Positions 9,714 through 51,279 of a stretch of 64,000 nt of DNA are shown one piece after another. The notes beneath the pieces were generated by a model. That model searched no databases. It saw nothing but the letters and a program-made list of their open reading frames with translations, and had not been told where the DNA came from. The translations under genes were made by a program, and so were the position numbers. The stretch is from a virus (lineage: Duplodnaviria > Caudoviricetes). The DNA lies in IMG/VR virus record IMGVR_UViG_3300048598_000287, positions 32,001 to 96,000 of that record; one strand, 5' to 3'. Each line of letters opens with the position of its first letter. Position 1 is the stretch's first letter.

Positions 9714-10631
9714 TTAATAATTTACCATTATGACTTCATGCGTTTCTGTGGATTTCTTTTTAGCTACTTTCTTGTAGTCGTATTCAAGTTCAATCATCTT
9801 GAACTTACCTGATTCCGACAGAAGATCCAGTAGCTTGCATCTTTCATCTCCATGGATGTCCGTTCCGGAAATCATCCATTTGGCATCGGAAAAATCGGAT
9901 ATGAACTTAAAAAGGCGTTCATCATCATTCTGTTTCCAGAATGCGTTATATCCCGCCTCCGTATTGGAATACGGTGGGTCTGCATAGAAGAATACATCGG
10001 ACATGTTTTGGACGCGCATGGAATTTGCTGAAACCGTTTCGAAATCACCCCAGATTATATCCACATTACGTATGGTTTTAAGAAGATTCCGCCACTCGGT
10101 GAGTTTCTTTTCCGTGGATTCATTGTACATACGTTTTCCGCAGGTCTGATTGAATAGCCCATGACGGTTGAACCTCATCATATTGTTTGTGCAGGACAGC
10201 ATGAGCCCGTACAGGCGGTAAGCCTTGTAATTAAGAAACGTGATCTTGTCGTTTATGTACTCCCCGCTTCCGGTAAAGTCGGATGTAAGAAGCGAATTGT
10301 ACTCATCCCGGAGAATCTGATATCTGTCATAGTCTGATGACGAGAACATTTTAAGGCACTCTATTAACCTTGCAAAATCAGTGTCGCTTCCTGTGGAGAG
10401 CACTTTCTGTATCCGTTGAATGTCAAATATATATTCATTAGATACCACATTTTTGAACATCCCTGCCAGATTGAATGACACCGTTCCTGATCCGCTGAAC
10501 AGATCAACAAGGGTCATATTATCAGTAGATTCCGGAAGATGTGCAACTAACTGCGGAAGAAGTTTGAACTTGTTCCCGGTGTAATTGAAAGGTGAATTAA
10601 CGTACATATGAATCCTTTGTGACAATGACAT
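9714..10631 (-). CDS. dam: Dam-family (T4 Dam-like) DNA adenine methyltransferase
   Basis: SPFNYTGNKFKLL, DLFSGSG, YADPPY. Confidence 0.85.
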   Translation of the reverse strand: MSLSQRIHMYVNSPFNYTGNKFKLLPQLVAHLPESTDNMTLVDLFSGSGTVSFNLAGMFKNVVSNEYIFDIQRIQKVLSTGSDTDFARLIECLKMFSSSDYDRYQILRDEYNSLLTSDFTGSGEYINDKITFLNYKAYRLYGLMLSCTNNMMRFNRHGLFNQTCGKRMYNESTEKKLTEWRNLLKTIRNVDIIWGDFETVSANSMRVQNMSDVFFYADPPYSNTEAGYNAFWKQNDDERLFKFISDFSDAKWMISGTDIHGDERCKLLDLLSESGKFKMIELEYDYKKVAKKKSTETHEVIMVNY

Positions 10632-10707
10632 ACTAAATATAGTAAATTATATTATTTTAGGTATAATATAAAAACAATGAAATCTGTGATCCTAACCCTA
10701 GAAATAA

Positions 10708-13508: not shown

Positions 13509-14831
13509 GTGAACTACCCTCACCCTAAAGGGAGTGGGCTTCTTTTCGTTTCAACGGATCAGCTATGGAAGTTCCCTGCAAGCAGGGGACGGACAGGAGA
13601 TTCTCGACGGAGGGGCGTTCCGCCCGCTCGGCTCTGTGTGACGAGCCGATCAATAGAATGTTCTTTGCGGCATGAATATCCCTGTCCTCAGTCATGCCGC
13701 AGTCACAGGCGAAGATGCGCTTGCTGGGCGGCATATTGAGGAGGGAGCCGCATGCCGTGCACAGCCGGGTCGTGGGTTCCCATTTTGAGAGTTTAAATGA
13801 TGCAAAGCCTTCTTTCTGGATGAGTTTCTGTTTGATTCTTCCGAGGCATGAATGCTGGACGGCGCGGCCATAGCCGCGGCGTCTGCATCTTTGCCAGGAA
13901 GCGATCTGTTCATCCTGGAAATAGACAAAATCATAATTGGCATAGATCCAGTGAATGATCTTGTTGGCCTTGTCATCCCGCACATTGGATATGTGCTGAT
14001 ATTCACGCCGCACGAGCCGGAGAAGATGATTCCGTCGCTTGGATTCCTTATCGTGCTTCAGTGCCAGATGGCGCTGGAGCCGTGTAAGTTTCTCGGTTTC
14101 TTGCTCGGATACATCGAACTTCGTCCCGTCGGACACGGTCACCGTGTCCTTTATGCCCATGTCAATCCCGCAGGATCTGCCCGTCTTGGGCAAATCAGCG
14201 ATTTTAGCAGTCAGGCAAAGCTTTATATGGAAGCCGTCAGGCTTCCTCAATAGGCAGCTGTCATGCAGCTGATATGATTCAAATTTATTGAGATGTTCCA
14301 GACCGTGAACTTTCAGATTAGGAAATCCCGGGATCGTCATCATTGATCCGCTCTTTATCGTCATTCCCTGATGCCGGATCGGAAGGCTGCTCACCTCGCG
14401 GCGGAATCTCAGCTTCCCTACTTTTCCGCCTTTAAGTTTCTTCTTGTTAAGATTCTTAACGTCTTCCTTAAGTTTCTTTATCAGGTTCTGATGGATTCCG
14501 GTGTTGAGCGTGATCTCACGCTCAACCCGATTGTGTTCACGATCAAAACACAATACCTTGCGGTGCTCATTGTATTTATAACCGAAGATATCACCTGTCG
14601 ATATGGCGTCGTTTATCGACCACTTGGCCTCGACGAAGGCATGAGAAAGACGACGCAAGACGGACTTATCCGTCTTGCGCGCATTTACCTTCAAATCTAT
14701 CTGCCTTATCGCTTCCATCATTTATATAATTTATATCCTTGACTTTAATATACATTTTTATTATACTGTTATCTATGGCGGAATTCATCTCCCCGGACTA
14801 AATTCCGGGAGTTTTCTTCCGCAAATCTCCG
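13509..14831 (-). mobile_element. Non-autonomous IS200/IS605-type element carrying only tnpB
   Basis: Right end GAAGCCCACTCCCTTTAGGGTGAGGGTAGTTCAC; left-end hairpin at 14777-14822; candidate TAM TTTAT at 14832-14836; no tnpA. Confidence 0.8.
13525..14721 (-). CDS. tnpB: TnpB RNA-guided endonuclease
   Basis: RuvC-I GIDMG, QDE at RuvC-II, Zn finger CTAC...CDCG, RuvC-III DRDIHAAKNIL. Confidence 0.9.
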   Translation of the reverse strand: MMEAIRQIDLKVNARKTDKSVLRRLSHAFVEAKWSINDAISTGDIFGYKYNEHRKVLCFDREHNRVEREITLNTGIHQNLIKKLKEDVKNLNKKKLKGGKVGKLRFRREVSSLPIRHQGMTIKSGSMMTIPGFPNLKVHGLEHLNKFESYQLHDSCLLRKPDGFHIKLCLTAKIADLPKTGRSCGIDMGIKDTVTVSDGTKFDVSEQETEKLTRLQRHLALKHDKESKRRNHLLRLVRREYQHISNVRDDKANKIIHWIYANYDFVYFQDEQIASWQRCRRRGYGRAVQHSCLGRIKQKLIQKEGFASFKLSKWEPTTRLCTACGSLLNMPPSKRIFACDCGMTEDRDIHAAKNILLIGSSHRAERAERPSVENLLSVPCLQGTSIADPLKRKEAHSL

Positions 14832-14858
14832 ATAAACAAATCTTAACCTGCGTCTCAG

Positions 14859-15056
14859 CCTTGATTTCCGCGTCGCGGCGCTGGAGGTCGGAGTAACATC
14901 ACACAATCTGAACTGGATATTCACCAAGATGGAAAGGCGTTAATAGAATACAACAGGTGTAACATCAGACAAACCGAATCTAATCTTCATCCATTCTTTT
15001 GTACGCATCGCACCGCATGCAGGTGTAACATCAGACAAACCGAATCTAATCTTCAT
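14859..15056 (-). repeat. CRISPR-like mini-array A
   Basis: 35-bp repeats at 15022-15056, 14956-14990 and 14890-14924 (period exactly 66) with unique 31-nt spacers. Confidence 0.85.
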
Positions 15057-15428
15057 CTGATTCTTCATAAATCGTTGAATATCTTCATATTGCAATGAAT
15101 ACTTATCATAAAAAATCTCCCATACACGAGAACAACTTACCAAGAAATGCTTATTTTTTCCGGTTAACTGAATGTCAAACATCCATTCATCATCTGAATT
15201 GCGAAGATCTATACGATGGGTGGGTAGTTTGCTTTCATCACCATATTCATCCAGGAACACCGTATTTGTGCATTGTCCAAGTAGTTCCAGGAACGTCTTA
15301 TCAAATTCTTCCTGAGTAACCTCAGGTTTCTCTAATTCTGCTTTAGAGAACTTGGTGAGCATCAGGGATTTCATCTCATCCGATTCATTATAGATCTTTC
15401 TTGCTTCTTCAATTGTTAATTCTGCCAT
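14940..15428 (-). CDS. Array-associated MAELT-family protein
   Basis: Family leader plus WMFDI/HFWV-type domain; reads in frame through two repeats (MKIRFGLSDVTP x2). Confidence 0.85.
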   Translation of the reverse strand: MAELTIEEARKIYNESDEMKSLMLTKFSKAELEKPEVTQEEFDKTFLELLGQCTNTVFLDEYGDESKLPTHRIDLRNSDDEWMFDIQLTGKNKHFLVSCSRVWEIFYDKYSLQYEDIQRFMKNQMKIRFGLSDVTPACGAMRTKEWMKIRFGLSDVTPVVFY

Positions 15429-15452
15429 GGTAGGCCTCCATATAATATTTAA

Positions 15453-15600
15453 TAATCCAATCCGAATCTAATCGTCACCCTAGAAAACGCTCATGATAAA
15501 TCAATACCTGGTGTAACATCATTCAATCCGAACCGGATATTCACTACATGCTCCGTAGTCGGAACGATGTAATATCATCCAATCCGAACACGGTGTTCAC
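15453..15600 (-). repeat. CRISPR-like mini-array B
   Basis: Repeats 15566-15600, 15510-15544 and partial 15453-15478; spacers 21 and 31 nt. Confidence 0.8.
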
Positions 15601-15972
15601 CTGATTCTTCATAAGTCGTTGAATCGCATTATCTTGCAATGAATACTTATCCTTGAAAATCTTCCATACCCTAAAATAACTTACCCAAAAATGCTTATTT
15701 TTTCCTGTGAAGAGGATGTCAAACATCCATTCATCATTTGGTTTTCTAAGTTCTCTGCGGTTAGTGGGAAGTTTGCTTTCATAACTATTTTCATCCAAGA
15801 ACACCGTCTTGGTGCATTGTCCAAGTAGTTCCAGGAACGTCTTGTCGAATTCTTCCTGTGTAACCGCATGCTTCTCAAGGTCTTCCTTAGTGAACTTAGT
15901 GAGCATCAGGGATTTCATCTCATCCGATGATGCGTAGATCTTTCTAGCTTCTTCGATTGTCAATCCGGGCAT
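15544..15972 (-). CDS. Array-associated MAELT-family protein
   Basis: Paralog; AAGGAG RBS. Confidence 0.85.
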   Translation of the reverse strand: MPGLTIEEARKIYASSDEMKSLMLTKFTKEDLEKHAVTQEEFDKTFLELLGQCTKTVFLDENSYESKLPTNRRELRKPNDEWMFDILFTGKNKHFWVSYFRVWKIFKDKYSLQDNAIQRLMKNQVNTVFGLDDITSFRLRSM

Positions 15973-16000
15973 ATTTTATCTCCTTAATATGATGCAATTA

Positions 16001-16029
16001 AATATAGATATTTAATTGGTCATTGTCAA
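16001..16029 (-). promoter_or_regulatory. Sigma70-type promoter
   Basis: TTGACA-17 nt-TATATT. Confidence 0.75.
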
Positions 16030-16112
16030 CTACAAATGATACCAGAATTCGGATCAATTGGAATAATATGTATATCGGGTTTAATGGCCATTAAATTATT
16101 TATAGTCTCTTT

Positions 16113-16214
16113 GCTGTAACATCATCCAGCCCGAATCTAATCTTCACCATGTATCCGACAAATGTCATAATCCGTCTTGATTGTAACATCATCCAATCCG
16201 AACTGGATATTAAC
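16113..16214 (-). repeat. CRISPR-like mini-array C
   Basis: Repeats 16180-16214 and 16113-16147; 32-nt spacer. Confidence 0.75.
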
Positions 16215-16586
16215 CTGATTTTTCATAAGTCGTTGAATATCAATATCGTACATCGAATAGGTATCCACGAAAATCTTCCATACACGGTAATGACTTACCC
16301 AGAACCGCTTATTTTTCCCGGTGAACTTAATATCAATCATCCATTCGTTATTAGAATTTCTTAGTTCTATCGTGTTTGTGGGAAGATTGCTTTTTTCACC
16401 ATATTCATTCAGGAACGCAATCTTGGTGCATTGACCCAGTAATTTCAGGAACGTCTCGTCGAATTCTTCCTGAGTAACCGCATGCTTCTCAAGGTCTTCC
16501 TTAGTGAACTTGGTGAGCATCAGAGATTTCATCTCATCCGATGATGCATAGATCTTTCTTGCTTCTTCAATAGTCAATTCGGGCAT
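16137..16586 (-). CDS. Array-associated MAELT-family protein
   Basis: Start MPELT with GGAG RBS. Confidence 0.85.
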   Translation of the reverse strand: MPELTIEEARKIYASSDEMKSLMLTKFTKEDLEKHAVTQEEFDETFLKLLGQCTKIAFLNEYGEKSNLPTNTIELRNSNNEWMIDIKFTGKNKRFWVSHYRVWKIFVDTYSMYDIDIQRLMKNQVNIQFGLDDVTIKTDYDICRIHGED

Positions 16587-16626
16587 ATTACATCTCCGTT
16601 GATATCTTAAATATATTAGCCAAGGA

Positions 16627-17043
16627 TTAAACGGGTATTTTTCCATAACGGTATTTAATGAATTTCAAATCATTTTCATCAATATAGCCATCCTGGATGA
16701 GGTTGTTACCGATTGCCTGCTCATCATACCACTTTTCATATGTATCGGGCATATCCCTATTTTTTATATATTCGTCTAAAGTCTCATTATAGCCTTCATA
16801 TTTTTTCCATTCATCGTTGAAAACGAATCCTTTTGCATTTAATTCATGTTCTGAAAGAACGAATTCTTCACACAGGTCAGGTTTTATTATGCAAACCCAT
16901 TGCCACCTAGGTTCAGCATCGCAAGTATAGTTCAGCTGAGAAAGCAAATGCATAGAAGGGAAAATATATTTCGTTCCGGAAAACCGATATACGGGAGCAT
17001 CAAAATATGTGTCTAAAAGTTTACTTTTACATTGTGCTTTCAT
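16627..17043 (-). CDS. Hypothetical protein
   Basis: 138-aa ORF. Confidence 0.65.
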   Translation of the reverse strand: MKAQCKSKLLDTYFDAPVYRFSGTKYIFPSMHLLSQLNYTCDAEPRWQWVCIIKPDLCEEFVLSEHELNAKGFVFNDEWKKYEGYNETLDEYIKNRDMPDTYEKWYDEQAIGNNLIQDGYIDENDLKFIKYRYGKIPV

Positions 17044-17105
17044 AAATAGATACCTTCTGTTTCAATGTTTCCATAGCAGCATGCTAGGGTTTTAGTTAGC
17101 TTCAT

Positions 17106-17180
17106 CTAGATAGTTCTCGCGTATTCAATCGTCAACTCGGTCATGGTAGGCCTCCGTATAATATTTAATTATCCAATCAA
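17106..17180 (-). pseudogene. Relic of the MAELT-family leader and its RBS block
   Basis: GATTGGATAATTAAATATTATACGGAGGCCTACC followed by MTELTIEYARTI*. Confidence 0.7.
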
Positions 17181-17186
17181 ATCCTG

Positions 17187-17450
17187 TTATTCATCCTGGT
17201 ATTTCTTAGATGCATCACATGTTATTGTCGGATAGTTAGGAAACTCATAGAACTTCAGTGGTTTTATGTTTGGTGTGTCAAATGGGCCTCGCAATGCCCA
17301 GTGAATTCCGTCATTGTCGTTCGCCTGTTTCTTCAATTCTTCCAGCGAAAACAAATATTCAATGAGGGCCACCTTTTCCGCATTGCTTAGGGAATCTGAT
17401 GTCATGATTAGGGTCTTCAGTTTTTCTGAACTATTCATATTATCATTCAT
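17187..17450 (-). CDS. Hypothetical protein
   Basis: 87 aa, AAGGA RBS. Confidence 0.6.
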   Translation of the reverse strand: MNDNMNSSEKLKTLIMTSDSLSNAEKVALIEYLFSLEELKKQANDNDGIHWALRGPFDTPNIKPLKFYEFPNYPTITCDASKKYQDE

Positions 17451-17581
17451 TTAATTATCCTTTCCTGGAATATATTTCCAAGTTCAATCTGGTGATTGGT
17501 AATTCAATCTCTATAGGTAAACTATATTTTCTGCGATACCGTTACGATAGGAATTCACGGTACTGTCCGTTTCTGGGTGTT

Positions 17582-17878
17582 CTAATGTGGGAAATGACGT
17601 ATGTCAATATCAACCGATATAGATTTCGCAGATTCGTTAGTTACAATCAATGCATATTGTTCTCTACCGTTAATTATTGTAGATGTGTATTTTGTCACAC
17701 GCATCGACTTAGCAATGGACATGGTGTCAATATCTATTTCAGCATCGCCGGCTATTTTACGGGAATCAATGATATATGCAGAAAATTTTGAGCCCGATAA
17801 TACATTCACCGATGTCCATCCCGTGATAGAAATAGGCAAATTTACGGCGATCAATTTATTAGGACCTAGGATAGCCAT
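17582..17878 (-). CDS. Hypothetical protein
   Basis: 98 aa, GGAGG RBS. Confidence 0.6.
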   Translation of the reverse strand: MAILGPNKLIAVNLPISITGWTSVNVLSGSKFSAYIIDSRKIAGDAEIDIDTMSIAKSMRVTKYTSTIINGREQYALIVTNESAKSISVDIDIRHFPH

Positions 17879-17883
17879 TTAGC

Positions 17884-18306
17884 TCAGCCTCCGCCTTGTA
17901 CACAGTTCGCATACGGTTCGTTAAGTGGATGAATGGATAGCGTACCCCAGGCGTTTGGTTCACGACAAGTACGGGATTTAATCTGTGCCATAGCTTCTTC
18001 GGTAGTATGCGCTATGGCAAATGCCACGCCACGTGTATAAGCTGAGCAAAAATCTGTCCAGACAAATAACCGTAAGTTTTCGTTCATAATAATCTTAGGT
18101 ACTTCATCTGGAATAGTTGGCGCTGAGATAGTCGATCTAGACGATAATCCTTTGAAACCATACCATTTGTCGCGTTTCTGAACGGTTTCCGAATATATAT
18201 CAAGACATCCCTTTAGATATTCTGCCAGAACAAAATCAGGCGTATCCGATTCGTTTTCCTTACTGTACTTATTGATCAGCAATTCAAGCTCATTTTCAAA
18301 TTCCAT
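17884..18306 (-). CDS. Two-domain hypothetical protein
   Basis: ENESDTPDFVLAEYL domain fused to a homolog of 5725-5925. Confidence 0.7.
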   Translation of the reverse strand: MEFENELELLINKYSKENESDTPDFVLAEYLKGCLDIYSETVQKRDKWYGFKGLSSRSTISAPTIPDEVPKIIMNENLRLFVWTDFCSAYTRGVAFAIAHTTEEAMAQIKSRTCREPNAWGTLSIHPLNEPYANCVQGGG

Positions 18307-18333
18307 TATCGTCCTCTATGTAAAATATCAATT

Positions 18334-18531
18334 GATGTGACATCATCCAATCATAACCGGATATTCACTACATGCTCCGTAGTCGGAACGATGTAATATC
18401 ATCCAATCCGAACACGGTGTTCACCCACTGATTGATACATATCCTGATGGAGGAATGTGTTCACCCACTGATTGATACATATCCTGATGGAGGAATGATG
18501 TAATATCATCCAATCCGAACACGGTATTCAC
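18334..18531 (-). repeat. CRISPR-like mini-array D
   Basis: Repeats 18497-18531, 18390-18424 and 18334-18368; first spacer tandemly duplicated (18417-18456 = 18457-18496); second spacer identical to 15545-15565. Confidence 0.85.
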
Positions 18532-18904
18532 CTGATTCTTCATAAGTCGTTGAATCGCATCATCTTGTAATGAATATGTATTCGCAAAAATCTTCCATAT
18601 CCTAAAATAACTTACCCAGAAATGTTTATTTTTTTCCTGTGAAGAGGATGTCAAACATCCATTCATCATTTGGGTTTCTAAGTTCTATACGATTGGTGGG
18701 AAGCTTGCTTTTATAACCATGTTCATTCAGAAACACCGTATTTGTGCATTGTCCAAGTAGTTCCAGGAACGTCTTATCAAATTCTTCCTGAGTAACCTCA
18801 TGTTTCTCAAGTTCACTTTTAGAGAACTTGGTGAGCATCAGGGATTTCATCTCATCCGATGATGTGTAAATCTTTCTTGCTTCTTCAATAGAAATTTCTG
18901 CCAT
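18421..18904 (-). pseudogene. Frameshifted MAELT-family gene
   Basis: A7 tract at 18629-18635 vs A6 in the paralog at 15698-15703 splits the ORF. Confidence 0.75.
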
Positions 18905-18950
18905 AGTAGACATCCTTATAGTTAATCACCAATACGAACATTGCAATCAG

Positions 18951-19095
18951 CCTAGAAAGCGAGCATGATAACTACCTGATGTAACATCAGTCAATCCGAA
19001 CAGAGGGTTCACCTCCCGTTCCATTATGCACGTCCGTGAAACGGGTCCTACAGGCCCCACATTGTAACATCATCCAATCCGAATCTAATCTTCAC
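18951..19095 (-). repeat. CRISPR-like mini-array E
   Basis: Repeats 19061-19095 and 18978-19012; 48-nt spacer; distal spacer related to 15479-15509. Confidence 0.75.
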
Positions 19096-19467
19096 CTGAT
19101 TAGTCATAAGTCGTTGAATATCAATATAGTTCAATGAATAGGTATCCGCTAAAATATTCCATACCCGGAAATTATTTAACCAGAAATGCTTATGTTTTCC
19201 TGTGAAGCAAATGTCAAACATCCAATCGTTATTTGAATTTTTGAGTACTATGCGGTTTGTGGGAAGCTTGCTTTCAACCCAATCTTCATCCAAGAACACC
19301 GTCTTGGTGCATTGTCCAAGTAGTTCCAGGAACGTCTTATCAAATTCTTCCTGAGTAACCTCATGCTTCTCTAATTCTGCTTTAGAGAACTTGGTGAGCA
19401 TCAGGGATTTCATCTCATCCGATTCATTATAGATCTTTCTTGCTTCTTCAATTGTTAATTCTGCCAT
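19048..19467 (-). CDS. Array-associated MAELT-family protein
   Basis: Paralog; AAGGAGG RBS. Confidence 0.85.
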   Translation of the reverse strand: MAELTIEEARKIYNESDEMKSLMLTKFSKAELEKHEVTQEEFDKTFLELLGQCTKTVFLDEDWVESKLPTNRIVLKNSNNDWMFDICFTGKHKHFWLNNFRVWNILADTYSLNYIDIQRLMTNQVKIRFGLDDVTMWGL

Positions 19468-19497
19468 AGTAGGCCTCCTTATATAAGTTAATTAGAT

Positions 19498-19717
19498 AAT
19501 CCGAACTGGATATTCATCTGATTCCAAAGGATCTGAACGGCGGCACGGATGTAATATCATCCAATCCGAACTGGTTATTCATCTATGATATCAATGGGAA
19601 CGTTATTCATGCAAGGTGTAACATCATTCAATCCGAATCTAATCTTCACCCAAGTTTCTGAGCAACCCGTATGATTTTCCTTGGTGTAACATCATTCAAT
19701 CCGAATCTAATCTTCAC
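19498..19717 (-). repeat. CRISPR-like mini-array F
   Basis: Repeats 19683-19717, 19615-19649, 19548-19582 and partial 19498-19517; spacers 33, 32 and 30 nt. Confidence 0.85.
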
Positions 19718-20089
19718 CTGATTCTTCATAAGTTTAGTAATATCATTATCTTGCAATGAATACTTATCCTTGAAAATCTTCCATACCCTTTCAGAACTTA
19801 CCCAGAAATGTGGGTAGTTTCCTATGAAGAGGATGTCAAACATCCATTCATCATTTGGGTTTCTAAGTTCTATACGATTGGTGGGAAGATTGCTTTTATA
19901 ACCATGTTCATTCAGGAACACCGTCTTGGTACATTGCCCAAGAAATTCCAGGAAGATCTTATCGAATTCTTCTTGAGTAACCTCATGCGGTTCAAGTTCA
20001 TCTTTCGTGAACTTAGTGAGCATCAGGAATTTCATCTCATCCGATGATGCGTAGATCTTTCTTGCTTCTTCAATTGTCAGGTCTGGCAT
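19646..20089 (-). CDS. Array-associated MAELT-family protein
   Basis: Start MPDLT with AAGGAG RBS. Confidence 0.85.
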   Translation of the reverse strand: MPDLTIEEARKIYASSDEMKFLMLTKFTKDELEPHEVTQEEFDKIFLEFLGQCTKTVFLNEHGYKSNLPTNRIELRNPNDEWMFDILFIGNYPHFWVSSERVWKIFKDKYSLQDNDITKLMKNQVKIRFGLNDVTPRKIIRVAQKLG

Positions 20090-20117
20090 TGTATATCTCC
20101 TTAATGTGATGTAATTA

Positions 20118-20146
20118 AATATACATTTTTTACACCTCATTGGCAA
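20118..20146 (-). promoter_or_regulatory. Sigma70-type promoter
   Basis: TTGCCA-17 nt-TATATT. Confidence 0.7.
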
Positions 20147-20156
20147 GTGAGTTTAA

Positions 20157-20417
20157 TCATTTCATATCAAGATGACTAGATATGTATGAATGTACACTTT
20201 TCCAAAGCTGGTCCACATCCGAATCGCATCGTACGATTACGTCAGCAACTTTCTGCTTATTGATGTGCACGGACACCTGACCAGTTGAATCCGATATCGT
20301 AATCGAATCTTCACCTGATCCGTAAAAAATAACATGGACGGCGTCGCCTACTGTCACATGCATGATACGTACGGCATTGATGAAGATTTGATCATCAGTT
20401 ATCACACTTATTTTCAT
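20157..20417 (-). CDS. Hypothetical protein
   Basis: AGGAGG RBS, 86 aa. Confidence 0.65.
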   Translation of the reverse strand: MKISVITDDQIFINAVRIMHVTVGDAVHVIFYGSGEDSITISDSTGQVSVHINKQKVADVIVRCDSDVDQLWKSVHSYISSHLDMK

Positions 20418-20487
20418 ATGTTCCCTCCTGTATTGAGCTCTAGCTCAGAATACCTATAATGAATCATATTTCCATTGACATCATACA

Positions 20488-21081
20488 TTAATACCACCAT
20501 TCATGTCCATCTGACCTTTTATTATGAATAATGCTCCCATCGGCATCGTACCAATCTTCATGCCCATAGGAATCCTTATAATGAATGCATTTTCCATCGG
20601 AATCGTAATCCCACCAGTGTTCATATCCGTCAGTAAGTTTCTTATGAATGCATTTTCCATCGGAATCATAGTAATACCATATTTCTGATCCGTCGGTATC
20701 CTTATAGCGAATCGGCTTCCCGCTCTCATCAAACCAATGTTCGGATCCGTTGGAATTTTTCGTATAGATCAGTTTTCCATTGGCATCGTACCACCATTCG
20801 AATCCATCTGAGGCCGTATAATGAATAAGATGCCGATTTCCATAGGAATCATATTCATACCATTTTTCAGATCCGTTGGGATACTTCGTATGAATCATGT
20901 TCCCATCGGCATCGTACCACAATTCATTACCCATTAAATCCTTCAGATGACTCGATTTATCAGAGTCCGATGAATCATCGGCTTCAAGGATTTTCTTGGA
21001 GAATTTGGTGAGCATCAGGGATTTCAGCGCATCAGAGTTGTGATAGATATTTCTTGCTTCTTTAATAGTCAATTCCGCCAT
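20488..21081 (-). CDS. MAELT leader fused to WYD repeats
   Basis: MAELTIKEARNIY...TKFSKKILE followed by WYD repeats. Confidence 0.85.
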   Translation of the reverse strand: MAELTIKEARNIYHNSDALKSLMLTKFSKKILEADDSSDSDKSSHLKDLMGNELWYDADGNMIHTKYPNGSEKWYEYDSYGNRHLIHYTASDGFEWWYDANGKLIYTKNSNGSEHWFDESGKPIRYKDTDGSEIWYYYDSDGKCIHKKLTDGYEHWWDYDSDGKCIHYKDSYGHEDWYDADGSIIHNKRSDGHEWWY

Positions 21082-21181
21082 GGTAGGCCTCCTTAAATAA
21101 TGATAAATCATAATTGATATTTAACTATCTTCCATTATGATATGTTGTAGATTCAATTAAAATATATGAAATTCTCCTTTG

Positions 21182-21925
21182 TCACTCAACTTTTTCTGCA
21201 TGACCAGAATACTCAACGAACTGATTGAATAGCTTTCTGGCAAGGCATCCTAATTCACCGCATTCATCACCATCAAGAAGCCCGAGATCTATAGCGTCCA
21301 TCTGATCCTTGAAATCATCGTAGTCTGCATATCCGCGCTTCAAGATGTCGGTAAGGATAGATAGCACGGCAGCCTTGCACGCATGCTGGTCCAGATATCC
21401 CCGCTCTTTATATTTGAATGTCCTGATTAGGCTGGAAAGAGGGTATTCGGAATGAATATATTCACTTCTTCTGGTCAAGAGATATTTCATATAATTATCA
21501 GTGAACTTAACATCTGATATATAATGTAATATTCCAGGTTCCCTATGCCTGACTTCCACACCTACCTGAACATGTGAAAAATCAAAGGTATTGATTAGTT
21601 GGTCAAGCGTAGGCTGGCGGTAAGAACAGAACTGCACCGGATAAGGGAACGTTTTCATGCGGACCGTGATTGCATTCTTCGTAGTGCTCAATACATCTAC
21701 TTCGGATATGTTATTCATCCGAAGGCGAAAATCTTCTCCGAATTCGTCCGAATCTGAGCCAGGATATACGTCGATATCATGCGGAGTATCTACGTTGCAT
21801 GAATTACCGGCGATGCGTACAGGATGATCAATCCCAATAGCATTGAACAACGCAGAAGGAATACGATACATCATTCTGCTCCTGATTTCATTAATAACTA
21901 GGTCATTCATAAATCTATAATACAT
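21182..21925 (-). CDS. Pol-beta-superfamily nucleotidyltransferase-like protein
   Basis: IAGNS...DIDVY and TFDF motifs. Confidence 0.65.
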   Translation of the reverse strand: MYYRFMNDLVINEIRSRMMYRIPSALFNAIGIDHPVRIAGNSCNVDTPHDIDVYPGSDSDEFGEDFRLRMNNISEVDVLSTTKNAITVRMKTFPYPVQFCSYRQPTLDQLINTFDFSHVQVGVEVRHREPGILHYISDVKFTDNYMKYLLTRRSEYIHSEYPLSSLIRTFKYKERGYLDQHACKAAVLSILTDILKRGYADYDDFKDQMDAIDLGLLDGDECGELGCLARKLFNQFVEYSGHAEKVE

Positions 21926-22066
21926 AATGCTGTCCTTTGCTTAAAATATGAATATAATCAGTTTTCCACGCTAAATATAGCATATTATCAACACATTGTA
22001 AATCAATTTCAGAAATATTGATAAAATCATATTGAATTTTCATATATATTTTCTATATTTAACGGT

Positions 22067-22783
22067 ATGAAAACTATTAGATTCAATACATTTGAAACAA
22101 ATTCCAGCTCAACACATGCGCTTGCCATATGCAAGAAACCCCGCACGGGCGAAGAATTCACCGATCCGGACGAGTACGGAATTCTATGGATACGGCTTGA
22201 CAAATATTTCACCTCAACCCATCAGATATGTTATAATGAGGGGTATATCGACACCGGGGAAACATGTAGCTATGATGTATCCACCCAAATAAAATATCTT
22301 GTGACTCAGGCAGTATCATCGGCGATTAATAAATGCTGTAACAATAAAGGAAATGATTATGATAAGGCATACATCCAGATGCAACGGAATCTTTCCATTC
22401 TGAGACGTAAAATAATAGCTCCTGTATATTCCGAGCTGAATATGGATCTCGTTAAAAGTATAACCCCATATTATCTATTGGACGGCAAGCGGGTGATAAT
22501 ATCCGCATCCAGCATGCCTAAGCTATATGGCATGGGAATAGGGATTGATCCCGATGACATGTATAGCGATGATTTCGCGAGTGCCATTCGCACACAGGTA
22601 GAGGACTATTCTAATTTACATTGGAAACGCAAAACCACCCTTGAAGAAGCGATTGGCATATCGGGCGAAATAGATCGTCAATATGGAAAAAACTATGATA
22701 AGAGAACTATAGCTGAACTGACATTCAAGCTATGGCGCCTATCACTGACACACTATAGCGTGCAATATTTCTATCATACATGA
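22067..22783 (+). CDS. FETNSSS-motif protein
   Basis: N-terminal IRFNTFETNSSSTH motif. Confidence 0.7.
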   Translation: MKTIRFNTFETNSSSTHALAICKKPRTGEEFTDPDEYGILWIRLDKYFTSTHQICYNEGYIDTGETCSYDVSTQIKYLVTQAVSSAINKCCNNKGNDYDKAYIQMQRNLSILRRKIIAPVYSELNMDLVKSITPYYLLDGKRVIISASSMPKLYGMGIGIDPDDMYSDDFASAIRTQVEDYSNLHWKRKTTLEEAIGISGEIDRQYGKNYDKRTIAELTFKLWRLSLTHYSVQYFYHT

Positions 22784-23008
22784 AATGCATTATCCATTTA
22801 ATTATTATGCGAACCAGTATTTTGTATGATATATACCATAAGAAACACCAGCGACTTTCGTATGGTGAGGTGAATCATGTTGTGTAAAAATGTATATTAC
22901 CAATGGTAGAGTTAAGTATCAAAAGGAACACCGCACGCCGATGTCCTTCGCGTAAGTTGGTGGTTAATTTGCCGGATTATCTAATTAATTTATATAAGGA
23001 GGCCTGAC

Positions 23009-23443
23009 ATGGCTGAATTGACAATTGAAGAAGCCCGAAAGATCTACGCAACAACGGATGATATGAAATCCCTGATGCTTACTAAGTTCTCTAAAAGTGA
23101 ACTTGAGAAACATGAGGTTACACAGGAAGAATTCGATAAGACCTTCCTGAGATTACTTGGGCAATGCACCAAGACTGTGTTCCTGGATGAAGCGGGTGAT
23201 GAAAGCCCGCTTCCCACTAACCGTATCGAACTCAGAAATTCAGATAACGAATGGATGTTTGACATCCAGTTCACTGGTAAAAATAAGCATTTCTGGGTAC
23301 ATTATTCTCGGGTATGGTGGATTTTCAAGGATAATGATTCATTGCAATATGAAGATATTGTACGACTTATGAAGAATCAGATGAACTCACGGTTCGGATT
23401 GGCTGATGTTAAACCCCTAATTAAGGAAATCATATTTTTTTAA
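23009..23443 (+). CDS. Array-associated MAELT-family protein
   Basis: Paralog; AAGGAGG RBS. Confidence 0.85.
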   Translation: MAELTIEEARKIYATTDDMKSLMLTKFSKSELEKHEVTQEEFDKTFLRLLGQCTKTVFLDEAGDESPLPTNRIELRNSDNEWMFDIQFTGKNKHFWVHYSRVWWIFKDNDSLQYEDIVRLMKNQMNSRFGLADVKPLIKEIIFF

Positions 23444-23510
23444 CACCCGGTTCGGATTGGGTGATGTTCAATCCATAACGGGATGAATAACATGGTTGGA
23501 TTGGATTATT
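23381..23510 (+). repeat. CRISPR-like mini-array G (degenerate)
   Basis: Repeats at 23381-23415, ~23440-23474 and degenerate 23483-23510. Confidence 0.7.
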
Positions 23511-23532
23511 AACTAATATAAGGAGGCCTGAC

Positions 23533-23961
23533 ATGGCTGAATTGACAATTGAAGAAGCTAGGAAGATCTACGCATCATCGGATGAGATGAAATCGCTGAT
23601 GCTCACCAAGTTCTCTAAAGCCGAATTAGAGAAACACAACCTTACACAGGAAGAATTTGATAAGATCTTCCTGGAATTGCTTGGCCAATGTATTAAGACC
23701 GTGTTCCTGGATAAACACGGTCATGAAAATAAGATTCCTAATAACCGGGTAAGATTAATAGATGCCACTGATAATTGGCTGTTTGATATTCAATTCACAG
23801 GAAAAGATAAGCATTTCTGGGTAAGTAATTCCCGGATATGGAATTGTTTAGCGGATACATATTCATTGAACTATAGTGATATCCAACGACTTATGAAAAA
23901 TCAGATGAACACCCGGTTCGGAATGGGTGATGTTACACCCTTCATTTTTTCACATACGTAG
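23533..23961 (+). CDS. Array-associated MAELT-family protein
   Basis: Paralog. Confidence 0.85.
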   Translation: MAELTIEEARKIYASSDEMKSLMLTKFSKAELEKHNLTQEEFDKIFLELLGQCIKTVFLDKHGHENKIPNNRVRLIDATDNWLFDIQFTGKDKHFWVSNSRIWNCLADTYSLNYSDIQRLMKNQMNTRFGMGDVTPFIFSHT

Positions 23962-24031
23962 CGGAACACGTTGAACACTGGGTTAGGATTAAACCATAAC
24001 GGGATGAATAACATGGTTGGATTGGATTATT
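23905..24031 (+). repeat. CRISPR-like mini-array H (degenerate)
   Basis: Repeat 23905-23939, 31-nt spacer, truncated repeat from 23971 (period 66), terminal block shared with arrays G and J. Confidence 0.7.
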
Positions 24032-24053
24032 AAATAATATAAGGAGGCCTACT

Positions 24054-24482
24054 ATGGCTGAATTGACAATTGAAGAAGCCAGGAAGATCTATGCAACAAC
24101 GGATGATATGAAATCCCTGATGCTCACCAAATTCACTAAGGAAGCCCTTGAGAAGCATGAAGTTACTCAGGAAGAATTCGATAAGATCTTCCTGGAATTG
24201 CTTGGCCAATGCTCCAAGACGGCGTTTCTGAATGAAGTGGGTGATGAAAGCCAGCTTCCCAATAACCGTATAGAACTCAGAAATTCAGATAACGAATGGA
24301 TGTTTGACATCCAGTTCACTGGTAAAAATAAGCATTTCTGGGTACATTATTCTCGTGTATGGAAGATTTTCATGAATACTTATTCGTTGGAAGATGTTGA
24401 TATTAAACTACTTATGAAGAATAAGATACATATTAGGTTCGGATTGGATGATGTTACCCCTTGTAGTTATTGGAAATGTTGA
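24054..24482 (+). CDS. Array-associated MAELT-family protein
   Basis: Paralog. Confidence 0.85.
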   Translation: MAELTIEEARKIYATTDDMKSLMLTKFTKEALEKHEVTQEEFDKIFLELLGQCSKTAFLNEVGDESQLPNNRIELRNSDNEWMFDIQFTGKNKHFWVHYSRVWKIFMNTYSLEDVDIKLLMKNKIHIRFGLDDVTPCSYWKC

Positions 24483-24633
24483 TCTGCGAAGATACATATT
24501 AGGTTCGGATTGGATGATGTTACCCCAGAGACGGCTATGCTGACGCGGCAGTAGAAGATACATATTAGGTTCGGATTGGATGATGTTACACCCTGCTACA
24601 ATTCGTATTTCTACAGGGTGGGATTGAATTATT
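24423..24633 (+). repeat. CRISPR-like mini-array I (cleanest copy)
   Basis: AAGATACATATTAGGTTCGGATTGGATGATGTTAC(C/A)CC at 24423, 24489 and 24555 (period 66) with unrelated spacers. Confidence 0.9.
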
Positions 24634-24655: not shown

Positions 24656-26209
24656 ATGGCTGAATTGACGATTGAAGAAGCAAGAAAGATCTACGCATCA
24701 TCGGATGATATGAAATCCCTGATGCTCACCAAATTCACTAAGGAAGACCTTGAAGAGGATTATACATCGTCCTCTTATGATAACCAGAATCACGGGCATG
24801 ATTCCCAGGGTAATGATTTTTGGTGCGATATCAATGGGAACGTAATTCATAAGAAAGCTCCAAATGGATTCGAAGCATGGTTCAATACAGATGGAAAAGT
24901 GATTCATAAGAAGCATTCTGACGGGTTTGAGGAATGGGTTGACTATGATTCTTATGGAAGAACTAATCATGTGAACGATTCCGATGGGTCAGAACGCTGG
25001 TACGAATACAATGCTAATGGGACAATATCACACGCTAAGTTTTCTGATGGGGAGGAATGGTGGTGCAATATCAATGGAAATAAGAGTCATTCCAAGTGGT
25101 CCGACGGATCCGAATCGTGGTACGATGCCAATGGAAATGACATTCATGGAAAAAATTCCGATGGATCGGAATGCTGGCATGATTTTGATAGCAATAAAAA
25201 ACTGATTCATAAGAAGTATTCCAATGGATTGGAAGAGTGGTATGATGCCACGGGGAATATGATCCGGTTGAAAGATTCCCTCGGATATGAAATGCGGTAT
25301 GAATATGATGCCAATGGCCACCTCATGCGCGAGAAGGATTCCTTAGGATGGGAAAAGTGGTGTGAATATGATGCCAACGGGCATCTGATTCACTCAAAGG
25401 ATTCAAATGGATTCGAACGGATGCATGAATATGCTACCGATGGGCACCGCATTCATGAGAAGGATTCGGACGGGCGCGAAAAATGGTATGATGCCAATGG
25501 AAAAATCATTCATTCTAAGTCTTCCGACGGAGTAGAAAAGTGCGAATCATGGTTCGATACCAATGGAAAACTGATTCACTTGAAATGTTCCGACGGTTTC
25601 GAATATTGGTATGATGCCGATGGGGAACTGATCCATTATAAGGATTCCGACGGAGATGAATATTGGTATGATGCCATAGGAACCCTTATGCATAAGAAGA
25701 TTTCCGATGGATCAGAAGAATGGTATGAATATAATGCTAATGGAAGGCTAATTTATGCAAATAATTCCGATGGATTTGAATCTTGGTATGAATATGGAGC
25801 CAATGGGCGAATGATTCATAATAAGACTTACGATGGATCAGAAGAATGGTATGCTACCGATGGGCACCGCATTCATGAGAAGGATTCGGACGGTTTCGAA
25901 TATTGGTATGATGCCAATGGGAATATCATTCATGAAAAGGATTCCGATGGATCAGAAGGTTGGCGGGATTTTGATAACAATAAAAAATTGATTCATAAGA
26001 AGTATTCCGACGGATTAGAACACTGGTATGATGCCAATGGGAACGTAATTCATAAGAAAAATCCAAATGAATTAGAATATTGGTGGAAATATGATGCCGA
26101 TGGGAAATTGAGTAATGAAATATGTTCTGATGGGTCAACCCGATGGTATTCTTATGATGCCCATGGGAATATGATTCATATGAAGATTTCCAATAGAACA
26201 TCTATTTGA
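24656..26209 (+). CDS. MAELT leader fused to a long WYD-repeat domain
   Basis: 517 aa, about 20 repeats; internal DNA duplication at 25431/25851. Confidence 0.9.
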   Translation: MAELTIEEARKIYASSDDMKSLMLTKFTKEDLEEDYTSSSYDNQNHGHDSQGNDFWCDINGNVIHKKAPNGFEAWFNTDGKVIHKKHSDGFEEWVDYDSYGRTNHVNDSDGSERWYEYNANGTISHAKFSDGEEWWCNINGNKSHSKWSDGSESWYDANGNDIHGKNSDGSECWHDFDSNKKLIHKKYSNGLEEWYDATGNMIRLKDSLGYEMRYEYDANGHLMREKDSLGWEKWCEYDANGHLIHSKDSNGFERMHEYATDGHRIHEKDSDGREKWYDANGKIIHSKSSDGVEKCESWFDTNGKLIHLKCSDGFEYWYDADGELIHYKDSDGDEYWYDAIGTLMHKKISDGSEEWYEYNANGRLIYANNSDGFESWYEYGANGRMIHNKTYDGSEEWYATDGHRIHEKDSDGFEYWYDANGNIIHEKDSDGSEGWRDFDNNKKLIHKKYSDGLEHWYDANGNVIHKKNPNELEYWWKYDADGKLSNEICSDGSTRWYSYDAHGNMIHMKISNRTSI

Positions 26210-26302: not shown

Positions 26303-27343
26303 ATGAATGACATATCACATGCATTTCCTAATCCTCAATATCTTGGATGCAAATACAGACATTTAGACTGGATAGGACATTATATTCCGGGCGGGGTATC
26401 TAAAGTCGCGGATGGATTTGCCGGATCGCAGTCAGTATCATATTTCATGAAAGGGAAAGGCTATGAAGTATATGCCAATGATTTCATGAATTATAGCAAT
26501 CAGATAGGAAAGGCTCTTATAGAAAACTCATCGGATAGATTATCGGATGACGATGTTCAGATGTTGTTTTCGGGAAATTCAAATCCTGAATATTACAATT
26601 TGATAGAAACTGAATTTTCCGATCTGTTCTTTAGCAGAGAAGATGCAAGATTGATTGACGCATTCAGAAGCAATGTAGATAGGCTTAATTCCGAGTACAA
26701 GAAGGCCCTTGCATTTTCCATAATCAACCGTACGCTTACCCGCAAAATAACAATGGGGCACTTCGCTCATACAAAAGCGCTTTCATATGCTAATGATGCA
26801 GATAGAATAAAAAGAAATGCCAGCCTTGCCCGCCCCATAAAAGATATGTTCAACGAATTTTTAACTGAATATAACGCGGCGGTATTTGACAACGGACGGG
26901 AAAACCATAGCTTCTGCGGAGATGTAATGAATTTCATAGAAGCGCTTCCTCCAGTAGATATGATATACTTAGATCCACCTTATGTAAATTCCCATCCGGA
27001 TTACCAAGGATACTATCATCTGCTAGAAACATTAGTGAATTATTGGAAAGACAAGAAATTCATTAATTCCATACATAGGTATGAACCAAAGATACATAGT
27101 GGATTCGACACGAAGAAAGATATAATGGCCTCTTTCGGAAGATTGTTTCTTCTATCAAAGAAAATACCTTATTGGCTGATAAGTTATAATGACCGATCGT
27201 ATCCGGATAAAAAAACAATACTTGATATGATTGAACCATATAAGAGAGTAGAGGTGATAGAGAAGCCATACATGAATAGCGTAGGCGGGAAAGGAAGTGT
27301 AAAAGGATGTAACGAGCTGCTGTTCATATGCCGCCCGTATTGA
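26303..27343 (+). CDS. D12-class N6-adenine DNA methyltransferase
   Basis: PQYLGCK, DGFAGSQSVS, YLDPPY. Confidence 0.85.
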   Translation: MNDISHAFPNPQYLGCKYRHLDWIGHYIPGGVSKVADGFAGSQSVSYFMKGKGYEVYANDFMNYSNQIGKALIENSSDRLSDDDVQMLFSGNSNPEYYNLIETEFSDLFFSREDARLIDAFRSNVDRLNSEYKKALAFSIINRTLTRKITMGHFAHTKALSYANDADRIKRNASLARPIKDMFNEFLTEYNAAVFDNGRENHSFCGDVMNFIEALPPVDMIYLDPPYVNSHPDYQGYYHLLETLVNYWKDKKFINSIHRYEPKIHSGFDTKKDIMASFGRLFLLSKKIPYWLISYNDRSYPDKKTILDMIEPYKRVEVIEKPYMNSVGGKGSVKGCNELLFICRPY

Positions 27344-27356: not shown

Positions 27357-27809
27357 TCAAAGATGTCCTGATGGCCATATATACGGAAGATCCGTTCGGG
27401 TGGTCCAGAATTTTTTCCTAGCATAATATTCCGGACATTTTCGCAGCAAGTTTGATTGATGCGCCAGATGAAACTCTCTGCATCCTATCCATTCCGGGTC
27501 ATTTTCTGAAACATCGTGATGCATGATATATGAAGAAAAAACATCTGATCTGGAATAATTAATGAATCGAATTCGCATGGAATCCTTGTATTTCCGGTTG
27601 ATCCATTGATCACATATTGCCATTCCATACCGTATCAATGCAAGTTCATGCCCTTTCCACATAGCTACGGCAGGATGATGTATCCATCCTCTATTTTCAA
27701 CCAGTGCAATGAGTATTTGCATGGCTTCTATACGCTGTTTGCCTAATCGTCTGTAATCTAGGCATTTTGCACTCTCATTGAAATCTGGAAATGGAAGAAA
27801 TGTTTGCAT
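27357..27809 (-). CDS. Pyrimidine-dimer DNA glycosylase-like protein (MSMEG_6728/DenV-like)
   Basis: MQTFLP, LDYRRLGKQRIE, HPAVAMW, HQSNLLRK. Confidence 0.8.
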   Translation of the reverse strand: MQTFLPFPDFNESAKCLDYRRLGKQRIEAMQILIALVENRGWIHHPAVAMWKGHELALIRYGMAICDQWINRKYKDSMRIRFINYSRSDVFSSYIMHHDVSENDPEWIGCREFHLAHQSNLLRKCPEYYARKKFWTTRTDLPYIWPSGHL

Positions 27810-49968: not shown

Positions 49969-50313
49969 TCAATATCCTTTACATTTCTTCGGTATATAAG
50001 AACTAATGGATTTGAATGTATATTGAAAATTATGGGCGACGTCATCAGCATAAGCTATGCATGCGGCCACATTTTTTGGCGATCTTTCTTTGAGTATGTT
50101 AGCATTTAATGTATTATATCTAACAAGGGTGGTTTCTAACGTGGCATATCTAACGCAATATGCATCATATATAGAGCAACCAATAAAAAGGAGGATTAGC
50201 ATTATCACACTGTCGATTATGCACGTTCCCTCACATATGCCAAATATTATGAGTAGCAGAACAGCGGATGAACCCAGAATGGTAACGATAAGCAATAATA
50301 TATTAATGGACAT
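49969..50313 (-). CDS. Membrane protein
   Basis: Two N-terminal hydrophobic helices; AGGAGG RBS. Confidence 0.65.
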   Translation of the reverse strand: MSINILLLIVTILGSSAVLLLIIFGICEGTCIIDSVIMLILLFIGCSIYDAYCVRYATLETTLVRYNTLNANILKERSPKNVAACIAYADDVAHNFQYTFKSISSYIPKKCKGY

Positions 50314-50635
50314 ATGCTGCCTCCTTTTTATGCAACTGATTTATTTTCTTTTTCTCTAATTTTTGCAGTTTCTCATACTTTCTCAACTGCACTACACTCT
50401 CAGAGAAATCTCGGAACAGCTCGGCATTTTTGATGAGATTTGTATACGTGACTTTAGGCAATTTGGCCTTACTCTCAATAAGTACCTTCGACAAATGAGT
50501 TATGCAAGAGCTTCTTATATCGATGATGCGCTGCGATTTACTAATAGAATCCCGCAGATTCTCCAATATAGAAGGGGGTTTCTTTAACGATGATACGCAA
50601 ATCTTTCTTGCTTCTTCAATCGTCAATTCAGCCAT
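50303..50635 (-). CDS. Partial MAELT leader fused to an unrelated basic helical domain
   Basis: MAELTIEEARKI followed by non-family sequence. Confidence 0.6.
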   Translation of the reverse strand: MAELTIEEARKICVSSLKKPPSILENLRDSISKSQRIIDIRSSCITHLSKVLIESKAKLPKVTYTNLIKNAELFRDFSESVVQLRKYEKLQKLEKKKINQLHKKEAAYVH

Positions 50636-50657
50636 GTCTGGCCTCCTTATATTATTT

Positions 50658-50913
50658 AATAATTCAATCATATTATTCATACCGTTATAGCGGTAACATC
50701 ATCCAATCCTAACGTGGTGTTCACCGAGCAGTCGACCAGCTCCACGCTGCAACATCATCCACTCCGAATCTAATCGTTGCCCCAGTTTAGAATAGTACTA
50801 CGACATCCGTTTGGTGTAACATCATTCAATCCGAACTGGATATTCATCATCGGGAAATCCGGCTTAAGTCCGGAGTTTGGTGTAACATCATTCAATCCGA
50901 ACTGGATATTCAT
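50658..50913 (-). repeat. CRISPR-like mini-array J
   Basis: Repeats 50879-50913, 50813-50847, 50746-50780 and 50690-50724 plus a degenerate terminal block; spacers 31, 32 and 21 nt. Confidence 0.85.
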
Positions 50914-51279
50914 CTGATTTTTCATAAGTCGTTTAATATCCTCATCTTCCAATGAATCCGTATCCTTGAAAATCTTCCATACACGGTAATAACTTACCCA
51001 GAAACGCTTATTTTTTCCGGTGAACTGAAGGTCAAACAGCCATTCATTATTTGAATTTCGAAGTTCGATTCTGTTAGTGGGAAGCCGGCTTTCATTCCCC
51101 TTTTCATCAAGGAACCTCTTCTTGGTGCATTGCCCAAGTAGTTCCAGGAACGTCTTGTCGAATTCTTCCTGAGTAACACCTTCTAGTTCACTTTTAGAGA
51201 ACTTGGTAAGCATCAAAGCTTTAAGGGCATCCGATTTTTTATAGATCGTTCTTGCTTCTTCAACAGTCAGCTCTGCCAT
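50770..51279 (-). CDS. Array-associated MAELT-family protein
   Basis: Reads through two repeats (MNIQFGLNDVTPN x2). Confidence 0.85.
   Translation of the reverse strand: MAELTVEEARTIYKKSDALKALMLTKFSKSELEGVTQEEFDKTFLELLGQCTKKRFLDEKGNESRLPTNRIELRNSNNEWLFDLQFTGKNKRFWVSYYRVWKIFKDTDSLEDEDIKRLMKNQMNIQFGLNDVTPNSGLKPDFPMMNIQFGLNDVTPNGCRSTILNWGND

Follow-up and report, generated by a model that had tools for sequence, protein, structure and literature searches.

Spacer F1, a stretch of 31 bases enclosed by two 36-nt repeats in a bacterial jumbo phage genome, is very likely a CRISPR-type spacer that was taken from a WYD gene through an integrase-like, polarised process. The window in which it lies is the whole 64,000-nt stretch of DNA analysed here, corresponding to bases 32,001-96,000 of a 277,197-bp virus record (CheckV completeness approximately 66%), and it was compared with sewage-metagenome contigs of near-identical strains and more divergent relatives. 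The explanation that we consider best, and to which we give about an even chance of being correct, is that the array harboring F1 is a Cas-less virus-borne mini-CRISPR that is filled by a Cas1-Cas2-type integrase acting in trans and probably serves in conflict between phages. The original prediction was right that the stretch is a real, gene-derived spacer, but the gene at 24656 that it named as source, antisense pairing as a rule and the 19646 protein as effector were not supported.

Structure of array F and the related arrays

Array F lies downstream of a minus-strand gene of the MAELT family (19646-20089) and is co-oriented with it, as had been proposed. Read in the gene-sense direction, it consists of R1, F2, R2, F1, R3, F0 and a truncated repeat, beyond which lies the ribosome-binding site of the next paralogue. 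The proposed spacer proved to be a genuine one; it is flanked by 36-nt repeats, and the distal unit of the array is common to strains. The elements of array F and the locations of its relatives are:

19646-20089, (-): MAELT-family gene F, approximately 147 aa; repeat R1 is made up of its last conserved codons, VKIRFGLNDVTP
19683-19718, (-): repeat R1, the gene-terminal 36-nt repeat, coding; sense sequence GGTGAAGATTAGATTCGGATTGAATGATGTTACACC
19651-19682, (-): spacer F2, 32 nt, the newest; carried by this genome only
19615-19650, (-): repeat R2, same sequence as R1
19584-19614, (-): spacer F1, 31 bases; sense sequence TTGCATGAATAACGTTCCCATTGATATCATA
19548-19583, (-): repeat R3, an older variant, GATGAATAACCAGTTCGGATTGGATGATATTACATC
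19519-19547, (-): spacer F0, the oldest; WYD-like, its reverse complement reading DSKGSERRH
19496-19518, (-): terminal repeat, truncated; immediately followed by the ribosome-binding site of gene E
14891-24591, strand unspecified: nine MAELT-family genes with mini-arrays A-I, containing repeat copies in the window
50691-51279, strand not given: tenth MAELT-family gene with array J, containing repeat copies in the window

The coding sequence for the last conserved residues of the protein forms the first repeat, and the C-terminal tail of gene F is encoded by the first spacer. A non-coding leader upstream of the first repeat is absent, the sequence at this position also being coding (LMKNQ). There are ten such array-linked paralogues (approximately 140 aa), each with the N-terminus MAELTIEEARKIY and the C-terminus MKNQ-xxxx-FGLDDVTP, and each ending in a 36-nt unit that recurs one to three times downstream. 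The record contains 25 repeat copies, every one of them inside the window. The arrays have periods of 56 nt and 65-68 nt, the repeats are 36 nt long, and the spacers measure 29-32 nt in 25 of the 31 catalogued cases; in repeat length and in the regular geometry of their spacers, they conform to the definition of a CRISPR array. The distal repeats diverge by up to one third.

The predicted RNA fold of the repeat (-1.3 to -4.3 kcal/mol) was no better than that of shuffled sequences, and an end-to-end hairpin was not found. Nucleotide-level constraint on the repeat was considered and rejected, as its synonymous identity was 0.81 against a gene background of 0.76; the six codons just upstream of the repeat, with a synonymous identity of 0.89, were no outlier. 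A scan for promoters and terminators gave results no different from those of shuffles. The arrays sit in tightly packed co-oriented operons, and are probably transcribed together with them. Given the co-orientation of array F with its minus-strand gene, a gene-sense transcript would be complementary to the WYD coding strand.

Two irregularities were observed at array D and its gene. A perfect 40-bp tandem duplication crosses a repeat-spacer border (18417-18497) and is common to several strains, and, because of one extra A at position 18635 compared with strain L014, paralogue D is broken into two ORFs (18626-18913 and 18421-18669). In the strains, this paralogue is an intact 160-aa gene.

Source of spacer F1

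The 23/24 match between 19587-19610 and 24827-24850 on which the original prediction was built was reproduced, with both segments on the (+) strand, and 100 dinucleotide-preserving shuffles gave no match whatsoever. The weaker matches mentioned near 26027 and in the 52378 gene were also found, each at 21/24 positions, at 26030-26053 (+) and 52414-52437 (-). The feature matched in the window is:

24827-24850, (+): paralogous WYD unit, 23/24 to F1, inside the WYD/RHS-repeat gene 24656-26209

However, an array-masked comparison with the whole record revealed a better source outside the window, in a WYD gene at genome 18.1 kb. The best match, at genome 18,156-18,186 (+), agrees with F1 at 30/31 positions (30/32 if the ambiguous border base is counted), a score that was reached by none of 200 shuffled spacers. 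This site corresponds to codons 22-32 of a 308-aa WYD gene, away from its start site, and contains the codons YDINGNVIHA; the lone internal mismatch to F1 is a synonymous Gly codon. The matches of F1 in the window are paralogous WYD units, an echo of the true source. Gene 24656-26209 and the WYD genes carry the Pfam domains RHS_repeat and MORN_2.

The F1 sequence is unchanged across 11 strain contigs. A perfect 32-nt protospacer was absent from the 277-kb genome, the JGI metagenome contigs and IMG/VR, and the only sequence that F1 retrieved from the JGI contigs was an orthologue of the 24656 gene. WYD/RHS-repeat genes, at least seven in number, are densely clustered at genome positions 13.9-21.7 kb (L011, outside the window), and three matched spacers (F1, s26 and the array D spacer) have their source in this region. 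The best genome match of F0 was no better than those of shuffles. The possibility that F0 and F1 tile one WYD unit was rejected, as the residues upstream of the F1 protospacer, NKCNWTFD, are unrelated to F0.

Sources of the other spacers

Significant source matches were obtained for six of approximately 33 spacers. Each spacer was compared with 100-200 shuffles, none of which reached the real score for the five genome matches. Two of the matched spacers lie in the window:

18426-18497, (-): proximal spacer of array D (D2), 31 nt plus the perfect 40-bp tandem duplication
15480-15509, (-): spacer s6, distal in array B; 29/30 to the phage's own DnaB/gp41-like helicase gene, antisense

The array D proximal spacer partially matches the WYD cluster, at 19/19 positions of an intergenic site (genome 16,680-16,698), and s26, found in strains L017 and L046, matches WYD units (best site 27/30; best local block 25/26). 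The mismatch between s6 and the phage's own helicase gene changes N to K. Spacer s21, present in arrays of L007, L015, L017 and L018, matches at 31/31 positions a conserved 641-aa ORF in this genome and in L045. The exact protein is present in at least 58 contig blocks, and the s21-bearing strains L015, L017 and L018 very probably carry the perfectly matching gene, i.e., they would be self-targeting. The new spacer of L047 matches at 30/30 positions a tape-measure-like ORF in an unrelated, myovirus-like IMG/VR contig with 52% GC. The expectation that the spacers derive from real genes is therefore borne out by a WYD gene, a helicase gene, the 641-aa ORF and the tape-measure-like gene of an unrelated phage, and the matched spacers, like those of CRISPR arrays, are copies of mobile-element DNA.

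The sources lie up to approximately 190 kb away in the contig, or in another phage. Most spacers have no target in the genome; only two of the seven recent ones match it at its 66% completeness, and the newest ones (F2, the L046 spacer, s25 and n1) had no source in the genome, IMG/VR, INPHARED or PLSDB. The spacers of this genome show one or two mismatches to its own genes (F1 30/32, s6 29/30), while s21, which comes from other strains, matches this genome perfectly. In addition, the spacers of WYD origin find matches in many WYD units of the phage itself, which argues against a simple DNA attack on WYD genes. Protospacer flanks revealed no common motif or PAM among the five protospacers, which is a small sample.

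When read gene-sense, F1 and s26 are complementary to the WYD coding strand, and F0 is probably so as well. Over all protospacers, three have the antisense orientation relative to the target ORF and two (those of s21 and the L047 spacer) the sense orientation. The arrays thus lack the consistent pairing with target mRNA that would be expected of an antisense regulator, and the antisense orientation that was predicted from F1 is not a property of the system.

Growth of the arrays among strains

From position 19924 down to 18300, the window and strain L014 differ only by the 68-bp unit composed of R1 and F2 (19651-19718) and by a 1-nt indel. In 11 strain contigs, array F is present as R-F1-R-F0 only, F2 being absent from all of them. 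Comparable differences were found in other arrays. In array E, L046 and L047 each carry a different additional 30-nt spacer, each insertion being exactly 66 bp, and the new units contain a perfect second copy of the paralogue-specific repeat ending in AAT. In array D, alternative proximal spacers precede a common distal one, with L017 and L046 carrying another proximal spacer. An additional proximal spacer is present ahead of A2 and A1 in L015 and L020, and L007 has two more proximal spacers than L006. At the other end, the distal spacer F0 recurs in five array contexts, including those of divergent relatives; it is located at the distal array end in L004, L006, L007 and L038.

Units of 66-68 bp were gained one at a time, beside the gene, with exact duplication of the gene's own terminal repeat, and the arrays therefore show the polarised one-unit growth with first-repeat duplication that is characteristic of CRISPR arrays. 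The C-terminal tails, i.e., the residues after VTP that are encoded by the first spacer, are diverse, with 66 distinct tails among 115 homologues. Exact duplication of a repeat, a ruler-like insert length and one-sided growth together form the signature of a Cas1-Cas2-type integrase, as established for CRISPR adaptation, and unequal crossing-over on its own is insufficient to account for this growth pattern.

Genes and array segments are clearly being reshuffled by recombination between paralogues as well. In gene F, the 5' third (19925-20063) shows 30 differences in 140 nt from L014, and the next 1.6 kb are identical, which is indicative of mosaic recombination among paralogues.

Cas genes, TnpB and the genomic neighborhood

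Pfam searches of the 277-kb record (approximately 66% complete) detected no Cas1, Cas2, Cas4, Cas6 or RAMP protein. No bacterial CRISPR with the phage repeat was found in 185,579 species genomes (exact match at 16/20 positions of the repeat core); the scan returned 12 matches, all of them single and coding for FGLDD(V/I)T. The repeat also matched none of the CRISPR-DR families of Rfam.

The record contains two TnpB genes, both in mobile IS elements. One of these elements lies close to array A:

13510-14837, (-): TnpB-only IS element encoding a 398-aa TnpB, Cas12f-like according to PADLOC; inserted past the last repeat of array A, at a distance of approximately 54 nt

A 96% identical copy of this 398-aa TnpB, with conserved element ends, occupies a different locus in L008. 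TnpB as an effector of the arrays was rejected, as it belongs to a mobile IS and the other arrays have no TnpB neighbor; the arrangement likewise lacks the adjacent nuclease at a fixed locus that would be expected for a TnpB omega-RNA or a type V-U or V-F system. In relatives, an IS607 (resolvase and 577-aa TnpB) is inserted inside an array spacer in L004/L005, with an empty site in L006, and an IS605 (Y1 TnpA and TnpB) lies just after the homologue in L001/L003, with an empty site in L002. Three independent co-oriented IS insertions are thus found beside MAELT-family genes.

Other genes in the surroundings are also of note. A D12-class N6-adenine DNA methyltransferase (26303-27343, (+)) and a pyrimidine-dimer DNA glycosylase of the T4 endonuclease V family (27357-27809, (-)) are encoded near the WYD gene. 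A gene assigned to Tad3 by Pfam is located approximately 2.3-5 kb downstream of the paralogue/array cluster in L004 (12722-13429) and L006 (8394-9101), with the IS607 between cluster and Tad3 gene in L004, and an ankyrin-repeat gene is found among the paralogues in L004/L005. In relatives, the paralogue/array region looks like an accessory or counter-defence island.

The MAELT-family protein

The metagenomic contigs contain 234 homologues of the MAELT-family protein, none of which is annotated, and the protein had no match in Pfam, PHROG or PADLOC; relatives were absent from IMG/VR and INPHARED. An AlphaFold2 model of the approximately 140-aa protein (pLDDT 87) found no convincing PDB relative by Foldseek (E > 0.1 only) and gave weak VIA-align matches (Z <=4.7) to MCM N-terminal and winged-helix DNA-binding domains; in the ESM Atlas, it resembles only small viral hypothetical proteins. 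The gene-plus-array design persists across the family at protein identities of 64-78%. However, the homologue encoded by a more distant phage (L001-L003) lacks an array, and the protein is therefore not dependent on an array. With neither a known fold nor a constant link to an array, the 19646 protein gives no sign of being the effector.

The N-terminal approximately 33 aa (MAELTIEEARKIY..MKSLMLTKF.K) also head WYD/RHS-repeat proteins and an unrelated 125-aa protein. The genes with this common head are located at 20488-21111 (-), 24656-26209 (+), 52378-53181 (-) and 50303-50680 (-). This head might represent a portable leader that serves, for instance, in targeting or packaging, or else a module for recombination. 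In L002, the region downstream of the homologue without an array contains two 36-nt hairpin-containing direct repeats located 42 nt apart (10574-10651), and the same stretch carries the IS605 insertion in L001/L003.

Possible explanations for the arrays

Our preferred explanation, a mini-CRISPR filled in trans, would operate as follows. A Cas1-Cas2-type integrase, supplied either by the host or from the third of the phage genome that is missing from the record, would insert units via staggered cuts 36 bp apart. The MAELT-family gene would occupy the position of the leader, so that the arrays would be read in the gene-sense direction, and the spacers would guide Cas effectors, likewise supplied in trans, against phages infecting the same cell, whether closely related or unrelated. 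Mismatches would protect the phage's own copies, and the complementarity of F1 to WYD mRNA would be a by-product of the captured strand and not a dedicated antisense control. The anatomy of the arrays, the polarised single-unit gains, the spacer sources and the mismatches to the phage's own genes all lead to this explanation. Several observations count against it: with neither cas genes nor a host repeat, the required trans machinery lacks a candidate; divergence of distal repeats by up to one third is unusual for a working array; s21 and the WYD spacers would amount to self-targeting; and the five protospacers gave no PAM, while the repeat folds no better than shuffles.

Several of these objections are what would be expected if the arrays were by-products or decoys, the main rival explanation, which we regard as possible, if somewhat unlikely. 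Here, the 3' end of the gene would mimic a leader-repeat junction, by chance or through selection, and the host Cas1-Cas2 would write into it prespacers mostly from the phage and in some cases from co-resident phages; the spacers would guide nothing, and the arrays would persist as neutral scars (neo-CRISPR loci) or else act as sinks drawing adaptation away from the host array. Such an origin would account for the spacers that match the phage's own lineage, including the probable perfect self-matches of s21, for the WYD spacers that would match many own genes, and for distal repeats that, as though free of selection, decay or preserve earlier forms of the gene end. It also agrees with the lack of effector genes, with the array-less homologue in L001-L003, whose gene needs no array, and with the fact that each insertion merely rewrites a variable protein tail. 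However, the frequent gains between strains that are identical over kilobases indicate an efficient rather than an accidental site, only two of the seven recent spacers match the 66%-complete genome, the design has persisted across a family at 64-78% protein identity, and the spacers of this genome mismatch its own genes. Recombination debris, in which the repeats would be 3'-end remnants of paralogues left by unequal crossing-over and the spacers trapped junk, is scarcely credible. Although the paralogues are mosaic, array segments have been shuffled between contexts and array D contains a 40-bp tandem duplication, this scenario leaves unexplained the recurrent exact 36-bp duplications, each with a 29-32-nt insert, and the inserts come from loci up to approximately 190 kb away or from another phage and always enter at the gene-proximal side.

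Rather than by trans-acting Cas proteins, the arrays might be served by the phage itself, which we consider doubtful. In such a phage-owned adaptive system without classical Cas, the 3' end of the gene would act as leader and first repeat, and an unrecognised phage integrase would insert 30-nt records of DNA that is either co-infecting or the phage's own; the MAELT-family protein, its tail rewritten at each insertion, or another phage factor would use these records, and the partner protein might bind the repeat that it encodes and take part in insertion or guide use. The strict linkage of one gene to one array in ten paralogues with paralogue-specific repeat variants would fit this idea, but this linkage follows trivially from the fact that each gene supplies the repeat with its own coding end, and the homologue in L001-L003 has no array. 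Similarly, cas genes and a host repeat were not found, and the AlphaFold2 model has no solved relative and weakly resembles DNA-binding domains (Z <=4.7); yet the N-terminal 33 aa are common to WYD proteins, suggesting a cargo or targeting module and not a nucleic-acid enzyme, the fold otherwise resembles only small viral hypothetical proteins, and the synonymous-site identity of the repeat (0.81) is barely above background (0.76). The first interpretation of F1, in which the array transcript is an antisense RNA regulating the phage's WYD genes, appears quite improbable. It would agree with the orientation of F1, s26 and probably F0 toward the WYD coding strand and with the probable transcription of the arrays together with their tightly packed, co-oriented operons, but three of three spacers would share an orientation by chance in one of four cases. 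Moreover, s21 and the L047 spacer are sense-oriented, one target lies in a foreign phage, F1 corresponds to codons 22-32 of its source gene, away from the start site, and most spacers have no target in the genome.

Comparison with known systems

Integration by Cas1-Cas2 duplicates the sequence between the staggered cuts, which becomes a new 'repeat' at a leader-repeat-like site, and coding sequence can be struck in this way. Nivala et al. reportedly showed in 2018 that non-canonical (ectopic) integration of this kind creates neo-CRISPR loci, as rare events in laboratory host chromosomes. In contrast, the events described here are recurrent, apparently efficient and polarised, and they occur family-wide in a phage genome. 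RNA anti-CRISPRs (Racr), which Camara-Wilpert et al. are said to have described in 2023 as phage mimics of a known host repeat without true spacers, are also CRISPR-repeat-like units borne by phages beside small accessory genes. However, the present spacers are copies of real genes, and a host repeat was not found.

The closest known kind comprises the mini-CRISPR arrays of the Sulfolobales viruses SPV1 and SPV2, together with solitary repeat-spacer units in phages. The SPV1 and SPV2 arrays are virus-borne and have been linked to interviral conflict (Medvedeva et al. 2019, PMC6858448). Like them, the present arrays are viral, contain one to three spacers and are devoid of cas genes; their spacers turn over at the same position between closely related viruses, may match close relatives with point mismatches to the carrier's own locus, and include one aimed at an unrelated mobile element. 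In their one or two spacers, lack of cas genes and turnover between related viruses, they are mini-arrays. They differ from those of SPV1 and SPV2 in that the first repeat is the 3' end of a coding gene, which replaces the leader, and in that one genome carries approximately ten arrays in a paralogue family with paralogue-specific repeat variants. In addition, no similar host repeat or leader was found (185,579 species genomes scanned with the repeat core), some perfect self-matches are probable, and the carrier is a bacterial jumbo phage instead of an archaeal virus.

Huge phages are known to harbor compact arrays that lack Cas1, Cas2 and Cas4 and target core genes of other phages, and the use of host Cas proteins was proposed as their mechanism (Al-Shayeb et al. 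2020, PMC7162821). The present phage resembles these in being huge and in having short arrays without adaptation genes, and its spacers likewise match such core genes. However, the previously described arrays usually lie beside an effector (Cas12j, a type I variant or Cas14) or have host repeats, whereas those reported here are without an effector and are fused to small genes. Taken as a whole, the coding first repeat, the gene as leader, the approximately ten arrays per paralogue family and the lack of an identifiable host counterpart are unusual.

If the arrays are functional, each phage would carry approximately ten independently evolving immune memories aimed at other phages, and the arrays would be to bacterial jumbo phages what mini-CRISPR arrays are to archaeal viruses, in a previously undescribed architecture. 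If they are by-products, they would reveal a CRISPR integrase that naturally and recurrently writes into phage coding DNA, which would bear on the birth of CRISPR loci and on the diversion of host adaptation by phages. As the gains between strains are clean, direct tests of the integration mechanism and of the spacer source are feasible. Either way, the arrays provide a dated record of phages meeting in the same sewage cells.
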